From NCBI GenBank assembly GCA_017963805.1, contig JAGCTE010000035.1:11839-75838 (forward strand): 64,000 bases of DNA, in the 5' to 3' direction. Made by a program: the position numbers and the translations under genes. Position 1 is the stretch's first letter. Every line of letters starts with the position of its first letter. This DNA comes from a bacterium. GTDB lineage: Bacteria; Auribacterota; UBA3054. Positions 51,404 through 54,134 of the stretch are shown here, piece after piece. The notes under the pieces are model-generated. The model was not told where the DNA came from. It did not search any database and saw nothing but the letters and a program-made list of their open reading frames with translations.

Positions 51404-52249
51404 ATGAGAAAGTTTGTAGTTTTTGCGCTTTTCGCGGCGCTGTCGGTTTGTGGTATGCTTTTCGCGGACAATGATCTTAGCGAAAACGGTTCGGTCGTAA
51501 TAAAAAAGGACACGCTCGTCTATAAGGGAAAAGCCTTGAAGCCCGCCGTGAAAGTTTATTGCGGTGGGAACAAGCCTCTGAAGCAAAAGAAGGAGTATAC
51601 GCTTTCCTTTGAAAACAACGATCAGATCGGGACAGCCAGAGCGGTGGCGACCGGCGCGGGGAAATATAGCGGCCAGGCGGTTGGGGAATTCACGATCAAT
51701 CCGGGCCCGGTGAAAATAAAGAAACTTAAAAGCATCGAGTCGGGATTCGAGGCTAGTTGGAAGCCCTCCTCGGGCGTAGACGGCTATGAGCTTCTTTACA
51801 CCGCTCCCGACGAGTCCCAGTCCGGCAGCCTTTTGGTGGCAGGCGAGCAGTCCTCAAGCGTCCAGGTCACGAGGCTCGTGCCGAACACGACCTATCAGGT
51901 GTGTCTGCGCTCCTACAAGAAAGTGGACGGCAAGAATTATTACTCCGCCTGGAGCAAGGCCAAGAAATTTACCGTGGCGAAAAGCAAGGATCCTGACGAC
52001 GGTGGTGACGACGATATTGATGACGGGCCGGCTTTCGCGGAAAAATACATGGTCGTCGACCTTGCCAGCGGGTCCAGCGATCCGGTCACGGATCCGGTAG
52101 GACCTGCCGAAGGTTATTTACGCATCCTTCGCGGCGGCAGCTACTATTTCTATCCGAAAGAAAGCCGCTCGGCTTACCGGAGCCGCTATAGCCGCACCGA
52201 CAACTACAACAACGACTCCGGCATCCGCGTAGTTCTGGTTTTGGGATAG
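51404..52249 (+). CDS. secreted Fn3-like protein with only the extreme C-terminal piece of an FGE/SUMF1 domain (internally deleted paralog)
   Basis: ATG 51404 (MRKFVVFALFAALSVCG). The YMVVDL motif is followed directly by SSDPVTDPVGPAEGYLRILRGGSYY...SGIRVVLV. Compared with the two upstream paralogs, about 200 aa of FGE core are missing. Confidence 0.65.
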   Translation: MRKFVVFALFAALSVCGMLFADNDLSENGSVVIKKDTLVYKGKALKPAVKVYCGGNKPLKQKKEYTLSFENNDQIGTARAVATGAGKYSGQAVGEFTINPGPVKIKKLKSIESGFEASWKPSSGVDGYELLYTAPDESQSGSLLVAGEQSSSVQVTRLVPNTTYQVCLRSYKKVDGKNYYSAWSKAKKFTVAKSKDPDDGGDDDIDDGPAFAEKYMVVDLASGSSDPVTDPVGPAEGYLRILRGGSYYFYPKESRSAYRSRYSRTDNYNNDSGIRVVLVLG

Positions 52250-52270
52250 AATTGGCTTCTGGCGATCCAA

Positions 52271-52310
52271 AGCGGCCGGCCGCGTTCCGCGGCCGGTCGC
52301 TTTGCTGTTT
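52271..52310 (+). terminator. GC-rich hairpin terminator (family member 2)
   Basis: gcggccggccgc-gttcc-gcggccggtcgc, then ttt. Confidence 0.55.
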
Positions 52311-52312
52311 AA

Positions 52313-52400
52313 GTCTTAAAAACGTGTAAATTTGGCCTTGTCTTACCTCTTAAAAACGTGTAAATTCAGCCATCTCTGACCTCTTAAAAACGTGCAAGAG
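52313..52400 (+). repeat. three direct repeats phased at exactly 34 bp (ctcttaaaaacgtgtaaatt core) upstream of a promoter
   Basis: Copies start at 52313 (gtcttaaaaacgtgtaaatt), 52347 (ctcttaaaaacgtgtaaatt) and 52381 (ctcttaaaaacgtgcaagag). Confidence 0.8.
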
Positions 52401-52402
52401 TA

Positions 52403-52431
52403 TTGACTTTTTAAGTTGTAAATACTACAAT
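52403..52431 (+). promoter_or_regulatory. sigma70-like promoter TTGACT-17-TACAAT driving the AAA ATPase gene
   Basis: ttgact at 52403-52408, a 17-nt spacer, tacaat at 52426-52431, RBS aggaga at 52443-52448, ATG at 52454. Confidence 0.55.
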
Positions 52432-52453
52432 AGTCGCAAAATAGGAGATAATT

Positions 52454-53797
52454 ATGCTTTTTAAGAGAAAGATCTATGAAAAACTCCTCGAATGGAAGCG
52501 CCGATCCAAAGGCAGAACCGCCCTTTTGATAGAGGGAGCCAGACGCGTTGGCAAGAGCACTATTGTTGAAGTATTCGGTAAAAACGAATACAAGTCTTAC
52601 GTTATCGTGGACTTCATGAAGCCGAACAAAAAAGTGCTTTCAGCCATCCTTGACCATCCTGACGATCTGAGCGTTTTTTTCAACGAGCTTTCCTTCGCCT
52701 ATAATGTCGTTTTGCACGAAAGAGAAACCTTGATCGTCTTCGACGAGGTGCAGCGCTGTCCTGAGGCCAGGCAACTATTGAAAGCGCTTGTGGGGGACGG
52801 ACGCTACGATTACGTAGAGACCGGTTCGCTTATTTCCATAAGGATGAACGTGAAGGATATCACCATCCCGTCGGAGGAAGAAGCCATCGGAATGTATCCG
52901 ATGGACTTTGAGGAATACTTGTGGGCGATAGGTGACAAGGTCACTTTTCCCGCCATCAAAAAGGCTTTCGAGGAAAGACGTCCTATGGGAAGAAGTTTCC
53001 ATGAAACGGCTATGCACCGCTTCCGGGAATATCTTCTGGTAGGCGGCATGCCGCAAGCTGTCGATAAGTTTATCGAGACGCGAAATCTTGGCGAAGTTGA
53101 CATGGTGAAAAGATCTATTCTCAGACTATACCACAACGATATTGCCAAATACGCCGGAAAAGACGCCGCGAAGGTCAGGCGAGTTTTTGATGGCATTCCC
53201 GGTCAGCTTTCCAAAAAGGAAAAGAAATATTCCTTGGCTTCTTTGGACAAAGAGGCCAGATACAGGAATTACGAGGAAGCCTTTCTTTGGCTCGACGAGG
53301 CGAAAGTCGCTAACATAGCGTACAACGCCACTGATCCCAGCGTCGCTCTTTCCCTGAACGAGGACGACTCAACTTTAAAAGTCTATCTTCTGGACACCGG
53401 ACTGATGATCTCGCAGACGCTGGGAGACCGCCCGTACACGGAGAGCAGCATCTACAGCGAAGTTTATTCCGGAGACCTTTACATAAACGAGGGAATGATC
53501 ATGGAGAATTACATCGCGCAGGCTTTTTCCTGCAGCGAGAGAAAGCTCTTCTTCTATTCCCGCTACGACCTTAGCAGCGCCGAAAACAGAATGGAGATCG
53601 ATTTCCTGATCCGCCGCGGAGACAAGATATGCCCTGTGGAGGTAAAAAGTGGAAATTACCGTTCACACTTGTCTCTTGATAAATTCAAGAAAAAATTCAA
53701 GAAGCGCATCGGAGAAACATTCATTCTTTACACCAAAGACGTCATGCTAAAGGACGACATAATCCATTTGCCATTGTATATGGCTATGTTTTTGTAA
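52454..53797 (+). CDS. COG1373-type AAA+ ATPase (AAA_14 + DUF4143-like)
   Basis: Walker A GARRVGKST, Walker B LIVFDEV, and a C-terminal DUF4143-like region. Confidence 0.78.
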   Translation: MLFKRKIYEKLLEWKRRSKGRTALLIEGARRVGKSTIVEVFGKNEYKSYVIVDFMKPNKKVLSAILDHPDDLSVFFNELSFAYNVVLHERETLIVFDEVQRCPEARQLLKALVGDGRYDYVETGSLISIRMNVKDITIPSEEEAIGMYPMDFEEYLWAIGDKVTFPAIKKAFEERRPMGRSFHETAMHRFREYLLVGGMPQAVDKFIETRNLGEVDMVKRSILRLYHNDIAKYAGKDAAKVRRVFDGIPGQLSKKEKKYSLASLDKEARYRNYEEAFLWLDEAKVANIAYNATDPSVALSLNEDDSTLKVYLLDTGLMISQTLGDRPYTESSIYSEVYSGDLYINEGMIMENYIAQAFSCSERKLFFYSRYDLSSAENRMEIDFLIRRGDKICPVEVKSGNYRSHLSLDKFKKKFKKRIGETFILYTKDVMLKDDIIHLPLYMAMFL

Positions 53798-53810
53798 AGA
53801 ACGATCGTAA

Positions 53811-54134
53811 TATTGCAAATTCAACCAGGGAGCCGGCCGAGGCGGTTACAGCGAGGGGCACACCGCGGTTGGTTTTTATATTCCGAATTCCTGGGGCCTC
53901 TACGACATGCACGGCAACGTTTGGGAGATGTGTCTGGATTGGTGGGGGGACCCCGGAAGCTATACCAGCGATCCGGTCACGGATCCGGTGGGCGCCGCCG
54001 AAGGTACCAGCCGCCATATGCGCGGCGGTTCACAAGCCAACCCTGCGGGCGAATGCCGATCGGCGTACCGAGCCGGCAACGGCCCGAATGACCGCTATGA
54101 ATTCGTCGGCTTCCGCGTAGTTCTGGTCCCTTAA
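53811..54134 (+). pseudogene. 3' remnant of an FGE/SUMF1-fold paralog (no start; about 105 C-terminal residues)
   Basis: The frame opens at 53811 and reads [41 protein letters not shown]...SDPVTDPVGAAEG...ECRSAYRAG...GFRVVLVP. This aligns with the C-termini of the 47939 and 49611 proteins. The 24-nt string agcgatccggtcacggatccggt is shared with 52085-52108. Confidence 0.65.

Follow-up and report, generated by a model that had tools for sequence, protein, structure and literature searches.

The locus described here lies in a 64,000-nucleotide (nt) stretch of contig JAGCTE010000035.1 (assembly GCA_017963805.1), the whole of which is referred to below as the window. It belongs to an island that varies between strains of an uncultured bacterium of the ruminant gut, with an M50 peptidase gene on one side and epmA/efp on the other, and is characterised by an ATPase gene with a partial gene resembling those of formylglycine-generating enzymes (FGE) on either side of it. 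Open reading frame (ORF) prediction, translation and Pfam analysis showed the gene order to be FGE1 (47939-49579) and FGE2 (49611-51302), both with complete PF03781 (FGE-sulfatase) domains; a gene for a protein of 281 amino acids (aa), here called gene 3 (51404-52249); the ATPase gene (52454-53797); an FGE fragment, here called the remnant (53811/53820-54134); and a gene (54258-55646) whose product possesses SLFN_AlbA_2, HATPase_c_4 and HTH domains, here called SLFN, which is followed directly by epmA. All features described between 51325 and 54193 are on the plus strand. A GC-rich terminator hairpin (51325-51358) follows FGE2 and is homologous to the hairpins located 3' of gene 3 and 3' of the remnant. 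Exact matches to the protein encoded by gene 3 were found on 10 contigs and to the ATPase on 17, these contigs coming from different samples and assemblers.

Related alleles were identified by homology search with the 281-aa protein, by exact-protein look-ups and by scanning the genomes of GTDB species with the ATPase; contigs and loci are cited here by L number. The same locus was recovered in ruminant-gut metagenome-assembled genomes (MAGs) and metagenomes, flanked at one end by the genes for FprA and the M50 peptidase and at the other by epmA/efp. In allele A (L187-189, L192-194), FGE1 and FGE2 are followed by an intact gene 3 (496 aa, fn3 plus full FGE domain), the ATPase, a 148-aa FGE gene, SLFN, a 571-aa FGE gene, a HigB/HTH pair and epmA. 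Allele B (L020/L027, L029, L190, L191, L197, L199) possesses an intact gene 3 (502 aa), the ATPase, an 840-aa FGE gene, SLFN and the 571-aa FGE gene, among others, while allele C (L028, L196, L198) consists of an FGE gene, FGE2, an intact gene 3, the ATPase, a 555/556-aa gene termed FGE-Z and further FGE genes. In alleles A to C, which occur in at least three related GTDB species representatives as well as in many contigs from metagenomes, the ATPase is flanked by two separate intact genes, the downstream one starting 54 nt past the ATPase stop codon. Allele D comprises the window and L001-L012 (deleted gene 3, ATPase, remnant, SLFN, epmA). Allele E (L195) has FGE2, the ATPase, the same remnant junction and SLFN, with gene 3 absent. 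In allele F (L014/L015), from the same species as the window, a 280-aa fusion gene is followed directly by SLFN and the ATPase is absent. Because relatives keep the ATPase between two separate intact FGE-like genes, the two 3' ends in the window derive from two genes and not from one that was split. The sequence-only reading had proposed that an ATPase cassette was inserted into a single FGE paralog; this does not agree with the relatives, in which the same gene order was found with intact genes in place of an empty site. The window very probably holds the wrecks of two different FGE-like genes on either side of the ATPase, resulting from repeated recombination between paralogs, rather than one gene split by a mobile cassette.

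A contig with an intact gene resembling gene 3 (L013) was set aside as a guide to the locus, its FGE domain and context being different and a gene for a 2902-aa protein lying 3' of it. Scanning of JGI metagenome contigs with the ATPase gave distant homologues only (<=73% identity) and no further alleles of the locus.

The product of gene 3 possesses a signal peptide, an Ig-like region, an fn3 domain (Pfam, E=5e-8) and an acidic linker, after which 'AEKYMVVDLASG' abuts the last ~57 aa of an FGE-sulfatase domain. This tail can be aligned to the C-termini of the paralogs (54% identity to paralog tails over 61 aa) and is too short to be recognised by Pfam, no PF03781 match being obtained for the gene 3 product at E<=0.01. 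Intact orthologues of gene 3 (496-502 aa) encode fn3 and a complete FGE domain, and the window copy lacks, in frame, ~645 nt (215 codons) of the intact sequence: gene 3 is internally deleted and keeps only the end of its FGE domain, as the sequence-only reading had it. Upstream is a promoter-like site (TTGTTA-17-TACAAT, 51359-51387) that matches at 9/12 positions, this being a consensus match only.

Comparison with the intact genes shows the coding sequence of gene 3 to be a mosaic of three segments. The first (S1, 51404-52071), which contains the fn3 match, is the native 5' part, its nt identity being 99.0% with the intact gene 3 of L028 and 99.4% with L014. In blastn searches, window positions 51467-52071/52082 align to the 5' part of the intact gene (in L028, window 49580-52082 aligns at 96%), and the alignment of gene 3 to the intact genes ends at 52071. 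After ...GCCAGCGG (52071) the window has a 52-nt stretch, GTCCAGCGATCCGGTCACGGATCCGGTAGGACCTGCCGAAGGTTATTTACGC (S2, 52072-52123), which differs at more than 13 positions from the native tail of gene 3 (GCAGATCCCGTCACCGATCCCAAGG...) and is identical to the tail of FGE-Z, the gene located 3' of the ATPase in L028 and L196, as well as to L014. The native tail resumes at 52124 (ATCCTTCGCGGCGGCAGCTACTATTTC...) and continues to the stop codon (S3, 52124-52249; tail A, ...YYFYPKESRSAYRSRYSRTDNYNNDSGIRVVLVLG). S3 and the terminator hairpin of gene 3 (52268-52304, 17-nt arms, 94% complementary) share 96.6-98.4% nt identity with intact gene 3 of L020, L029, L187, L028 and L196, and by blastn the stretch 52079-53819 maps to the gene 3 tail, terminator, repeats, ATPase and a further 22 nt at 97.7-98.6%. 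The S1/S2 junction is formed by a 5-nt microhomology, AGCGG, found in gene 3 as GCC-AGCGG-AGCGATC and in FGE-Z as GAA-AGCGG-GTCCAGC. The present product of gene 3 is probably a secreted Ig-like/fn3 protein that lacks an FGE-like domain able to fold.

An S1/S2 junction identical to that of the window is present in allele F, where it is followed by the rest of the FGE-Z tail (98.8% identity to L196, 2 mismatches in 173 nt). As this fusion gene consists of the 5' part of gene 3 and the FGE-Z tail of L196, allele F is not an ancestral empty site but a ~3.9-kb deletion of a C-like layout, from which most of FGE-Z was lost together with the ATPase and the FGE domain of gene 3. The existence of a cassette-free allele within the same species favours insertion of a mobile cassette, but the tail of the downstream gene in L014 identifies this allele as a deletion product. 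It was the only cassette-free allele seen, and no uninterrupted target was found in close relatives.

The remnant covers positions 157-254 of the 255 positions of the PF03781 profile (E=2.6e-18; 67.1 bits against a cut-off of 23.3) and is a C-terminal fragment, since the match spans only these positions. It had been read from the sequence as a promoterless 3' fragment of an FGE gene starting 14 nt past the ATPase stop codon. Both points stand: no promoter-like site was identified 5' of it in a promoter scan, and 14 nt is correct for the open frame, although comparison with relatives places the true junction at 53819/53820, 22 nt past the stop. The native 3' flank of the ATPase (53798-53819, ...ATTGCAAA) is 100% identical to all intact alleles, which diverge beyond it, and FGE coding sequence then begins abruptly in the window (TTCAACCAGG...). 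The 5' part of the remnant (53820-53915), recognisable by Pfam and lacking a start codon and a promoter, has the same junction in L195 and 97.9% identity to it, with <=86% identity to any intact paralog found. From 53858 onward the window maps by blastn to the tail of the downstream gene and SLFN. The missing 5' sequence amounts to ~2.24 kb by comparison with the 840-aa gene or ~1.4 kb by comparison with FGE-Z.

Within the remnant, a tract of 191 nt (53916-54106), with GCACGGCAACGTT and TTCCGCGT at its borders, matches the first-domain tail of the 571/737-aa FGE paralog (L020, L187, L196 and others) at 99.0-99.5% identity, and the corresponding part of the remnant of L195, which retains a tail of the 840-aa type, at only 78.7%. 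The sequences on either side (53820-53915 and from 54107 onward) follow L195. The tract thus qualifies as gene conversion, being nearly identical to a paralog within sequence that follows the orthologous L195 allele. The native end of the remnant (54107-54134, GFRVVLVP and stop codon) is identical or nearly so in L014, L195, L187 and L190. It is followed by the terminator of the dead gene (54162-54193, a 14-pair stem and then a T run), now the first terminator 3' of the ATPase. The remnant is probably a dead pseudogene that would be transcribed only as 3' untranslated region of the ATPase, whose transcript its terminator would now end.

As had been noted from the sequence, the two 3' ends share identical stretches. 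A 25-nt box, CCAGCGATCCGGTCACGGATCCGGT, occurs within the window only at 52074 (52074-52098 in gene 3) and 53965, and the ends of gene 3 and the remnant are near-identical (21 nt at 95%, the last 16 nt identical), TCCGCGTAGTTCTGGT closing both; similar GC-rich terminator hairpins follow each. The box is 100% conserved in five tail types (FGE-Z, 840-aa, 148-aa, 571-aa and L195) and is absent from the native tail of gene 3. Since it is conserved in five paralog tail types, the 25-nt identity reflects conservation across the family together with the S2 patch, and not a duplication scar. The proposal that the 3' end was duplicated or gene-converted is upheld for gene conversion, in the form of the 191-nt tract from a third paralog, and is not supported for duplication. 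A simple two-copy duplication of one 3' end was likewise rejected, the tail of gene 3 being native and the box family-wide.

The box common to both 3' ends would agree with insertion of a mobile ATPase cassette into one FGE paralog, followed by duplication or conversion of its 3' end to leave a deleted copy upstream and a detached 3' end downstream. The cassette is also a discrete unit of repeats, promoter and ORF, as the sequence-only reading had recognised, and it recurs in an unrelated context in L016. Such an origin is nevertheless highly improbable. Besides the two separate intact genes around the ATPase in relatives, the remnant shares only ~51% protein identity with the matching part of gene 3, as against the 96.6-98.4% nt identity between the gene 3 tail and its orthologues, and the box is foreign to the native gene 3 tail. 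No terminal inverted repeats flank 52309-53797 apart from the terminator hairpins, no target-site duplication was found at the cassette borders, where it had been proposed to look for one, and no transposase, integrase or recombinase gene was identified in any allele examined; insertion of the transposon type was rejected.

The same box could be imagined as the site of a dedicated recombinase that shuffles C-terminal cassettes, as in shufflons or antigenic variation. All 25 of its positions are the same across five tail types whose remaining sequence is 70-85% identical, the S1/S2 junction (52071/52072) lies 2 nt upstream of it, and tail swaps distinguish many of the alleles. Programmed variation of this kind is very unlikely, as all copies of the box are in direct orientation, other tail patches are equally conserved, dead fragments are among the products, and none of the alleles contains a recombinase gene. 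The other junctions (53819/53820, 53915/53916, 54106/54107, that in the terminator hairpin and that at TTTGCCTGCAG) are located away from the box.

Further decay products were identified at the locus. The 148-aa gene of allele A (L187:7778-8224) consists of the signal peptide of the 840-aa gene (AAFAC) joined in frame to 'RAGTTTALNNG' of its last domain, at a shared TTTGCCTGCAG. L195 has lost gene 3 through a junction inside the terminator hairpin common to the 3' flanks of FGE2 and gene 3 (5168-5377), and L020 carries a 70-aa stump (17197-17409) with the junction 'NPSEYKGD|ATDPAGP'. The presence of several such products shows that paralog recombination at this locus is recurrent and proceeds via microhomology, homology tracts of ~20 nt and terminator homology.

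A chimeric or collapsed assembly of the repeated FGE paralogs was also considered. Identical stretches among paralogs could mislead short-read assemblers, and one assembly, that of sample ERZ28019258, does break between gene 3 and the ATPase (L002 ends 55 nt past gene 3 and L007 begins 173 nt 5' of the ATPase), a break that would be expected where a single sample contains several coexisting alleles of the locus. The probability of an artefact is negligible, as at least 10 contigs, obtained from different samples with different assemblers and including ones of 125 kb and 353 kb, have the same layout and junctions, and the identical stretches are <=25 nt and thus shorter than the k-mers used in assembly (k141 contigs).

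The ancestral type of layout, the junction sequences and the mosaic composition, together with the low divergence of the cassette described below, were observed directly in the contigs; from these the order of events can be inferred. The ancestral layout would have consisted of FGE2, gene 3 (fn3 and a full FGE-like domain), the ATPase with its own repeats and promoter, a second FGE-like gene and accessory genes (the regulator-like SLFN/AlbA_2 gene and others). An illegitimate deletion at AGCGG may first have linked 'DLASG' of gene 3 to the tail of the downstream paralog ('GESG|SSDPV...'), giving the L014/L015 fusion allele without the ATPase. A short-homology crossover with an ATPase-bearing allele, within the ~20-nt tract (C/A)TCCTTCGCGGCGGCAGC, would then have restored the tail of gene 3, its terminator and the ATPase cassette behind the 52-nt patch. 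The gene 3' of the ATPase would have lost its start and at least 1.4-2.2 kb through an illegitimate deletion starting 22 nt past the ATPase stop codon, the junction of which is also seen in L195, and the 191-nt tract of the remnant would finally have been converted from a third paralog.

The chief alternative, the same ancestry with the opposite order, is possible, though rather unlikely. A double-strand break in the FGE domain of gene 3 would have been repaired by copying 52 nt of the tail of the downstream paralog, switching in at AGCGG and back by homology, such that S1, S2 and S3 arose in a single step with the ATPase in place throughout, and L014 would have arisen later by recombination between S2 and FGE-Z with deletion of the ATPase. 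S2 is a short templated patch that begins at a microhomology and ends in a homology tract, as is typical of synthesis-dependent repair; DNA need not have been imported from another strain, and L014 corresponds exactly to the predicted product of S2 and FGE-Z recombination. Against this order, the intermediate that it requires (deleted gene 3, ATPase, intact FGE-Z and SLFN) was not found among the contigs, and the window and L195 have a different downstream remnant, of the 840-aa type, such that further replacement steps would be needed.

Several points weigh against the derivation of the window by successive recombination between paralogs. None of the contigs had the intermediate layout in which gene 3 is deleted, the ATPase is present and the gene 3' of it is still intact, and the order of the first two steps is unproven. 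An exact intact parent of 53820-53915 was not found, the best match being 86%, and the 64-kb window contains no donor copy of 53916-54106. No allele was seen in which an intact gene 3 directly abuts the downstream gene, and an older insertion of the ATPase between two genes is possible. The relatives, furthermore, are all metagenome contigs or MAGs, for which linkage beyond each contig and strain identity are uncertain.

The ATPase possesses an AAA_14 domain (PF13173, residues 22-156, E=5e-22) and a DUF4143 domain (PF13635, residues 228-400, E=3e-25), which is the architecture of COG1373. It is a full-length match to the PADLOC candidate PDC-S01 (PDLC04792, E=3.3e-115, residues 3-447 against profile positions 2-433 of 452). 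PDC-S01 is a candidate phage-defence family with unvalidated activity (PMC12988326), described as an ATPase fused to a PD-(D/E)XK domain (PMC12988326; PMC3424549). It has been reported to be very abundant in rumen MAGs and to be the most frequent single locus in rumen genomes (PMC13356809). The ATPase of the window shares with PDC-S01 the two-domain architecture and the single-gene unit, in addition to the full-length match to the PADLOC hidden Markov model, and is a defence candidate only. Its AlphaFold model is mediocre (mean pLDDT 67, residues 244-310 poor). A Foldseek search of the PDB with this model gave nothing at E<=0.001 and only weak resemblances to AAA+ (McrB, ORC, TnsC) and PD-(D/E)XK (Can2, Bax1) proteins, and a sequence search of the PDB gave no match. 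The nearest named homologues are from Kiritimatiellae and Verrucomicrobia MAGs.

The ATPase is self-contained, in agreement with what had been read from the sequence, having its own sigma-70-like promoter-like site (TTGACT-17-TACAAT, 52403-52431; 10/12 positions match and it is conserved in homologues) and three repeats at 34-nt spacing (52309-52400, core CTTAAAAACGTG). In L016, which encodes an 82%-identical homologue in an unrelated context, nt similarity covers window positions 52314-53797 exactly, namely the repeats, promoter and ORF. Between the window and alleles A, B, C and E, synonymous divergence (dS) is 0.011-0.033 for the ATPase, 0.16-0.21 for SLFN and 0.22-1.38 for FprA, M50, EpmA and EF-P; the corresponding nt identities are 98.5-99.6% for the ATPase, 77-95% for FprA, M50 and EpmA and 91.5-97.2% for EF-P. 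Three different GTDB species representatives carry a 98-99% identical ATPase at the same locus, and the GC content of the ATPase and SLFN genes is below that of the flanks. The low dS of the ATPase relative to the core flanks indicates recent exchange of the cassette and the gene 3 tail between lineages by recombination, and comparison of 52124-53819 with L020, L187, L028 and L195 suggests a recent cross-lineage sweep of the cassette. This agrees with the description of COG1373 among genes co-shared by horizontal transfer in the gut microbiota (PMC10782964). The ATPase cassette is likely to be selected cargo that is moved by homologous recombination between lineages, with the tails of the FGE paralogs serving as homology arms.

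The repeats upstream of the ATPase were examined among its homologues, where they are located at -137/-103/-69 and are conserved in unrelated contexts. Arrays of 33/34 nt with an invariant CGTG core were found just 5' of the PDC-S01 promoter in L016/L030, L031, L107 and ~90 other loci (L032-L186), across phyla and in unrelated genomic surroundings. The consensus is CTTAAAAACGTG in the clade of at least 69% identity and aactTGc.tTTTCGTGca in Firmicutes homologues of 52-59% identity. The array usually has three copies, the last being ~60 nt before the start codon. At least three copies of a 9-mer occur in 74/139 distinct upstream regions, compared with 9/1390 control windows, and at least three phased CGTG motifs in 94/140 distinct upstream regions. 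A description of this array upstream of PDC-S01 was not found in the literature searched. No DNA-binding domain able to read the repeats could be demonstrated from the ATPase model (pLDDT 67) and the fold search. It is conceivable, if doubtful, that the cassette is a self-contained and horizontally sweeping module, that the array is the site of DNA assembly or autoregulation of the ATPase itself, and that the FGE tails and terminators act as portable homology arms for defence cargo among rumen lineages.

The locus resembles variable islands and defence hot spots in its constant location, with core genes at both ends (M50 peptidase and FprA at one, epmA/efp at the other), in gene content that varies among close strains (ATPase, SLFN/AlbA_2, HigB/HTH pair and number of FGE paralogs) and in cargo far less diverged than its flanks, with no integrase or transposon ends. 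It differs in that the substrates of recombination are mostly tandem FGE-like tails and terminators inside the island and not the core flanks. As recombination takes place through these tails and terminators, in-frame deletion derivatives and pseudogene stumps are left behind. Between SLFN and epmA, L187 (9823-13498) and L020 (15519-18866) encode the 571-aa FGE gene, a 279-aa gene and a HigB-like toxin/HTH_3 pair, none of which is present in the corresponding interval of the window (55646-55687). A 16-nt inverted repeat at 54197-54236 (TTTATTACCCATGTGT / ACCCATGGGTAATAAA, 8-nt spacer) overlaps the promoter region of SLFN; it is conserved in L014, L187, L190 and L195 and is operator-like in appearance. 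A tRNA-Lys(CTT) gene is located on the minus strand near the island (58247-58322, ~1.1 kb past efp), with no associated integrase, and no Rfam family match was obtained in 47-58 kb.

With regard to the PF03781 family, which includes PvdO, GldK/PorK and EgtB C-terminal domains, full domains are present in FGE1, FGE2 and the intact relatives, whereas gene 3 and the remnant of the window hold partial domains only, the latter matching the last 98 positions. No equivalog-level NCBIfam match was obtained for FGE2 (PvdO 93.8 bits against a cut-off of 500, GldK 65.3 against 350, EgtB below cut-off), and because these cut-offs are not reached the FGE-like genes should not be called formylglycine-generating enzymes. 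At ~aa 130-175, FGE1 and FGE2 each possess a mid-protein PEP-CTERM sorting motif (VPEP..., transmembrane helix, RRRAKA), with TIGR02595 above cut-off in FGE2. This is followed by a second signal-peptide-like segment and then the FGE-like domain, an arrangement also seen in related lineages, which looks as though a small PEP-CTERM protein had been joined in frame to a secreted FGE-like protein and the fusion conserved.

Features in common with tandem arrays of surface-protein genes are the mosaic tails, the 191-nt conversion tract at 99.5% in surroundings of 78-86%, and microhomology or short-homology deletion junctions with recurrent in-frame derivatives. The difference is that there is no evidence here of programmed or phase-variable switching, and several of the products are dead. 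The locus is a known kind of genome plasticity, namely island turnover by recombination of tandem paralogs, documented here to the base pair.

For annotation, no gene has been disrupted by the ATPase, and the 281-aa gene and the 75-aa "FGE-sulfatase" ORF of gene finders are decay products that should not be counted as functional FGE-like enzymes. The locus provides a junction-level example, from an uncultured rumen bacterium, of a tandem paralog family that creates presence/absence polymorphism of a candidate defence gene, the mechanisms seen being microhomology deletion, crossover at ~20 nt of homology, gene conversion and terminator recombination. More unusual are the cross-lineage sweep suggested for the PDC-S01 cassette, a defence candidate that appears to have spread recently across lineages whose core genes are saturated in synonymous changes, and the periodic 33/34-nt array upstream of PDC-S01 genes, which provides a starting point for experiments on a defence candidate that is among the most abundant of those still uncharacterised.

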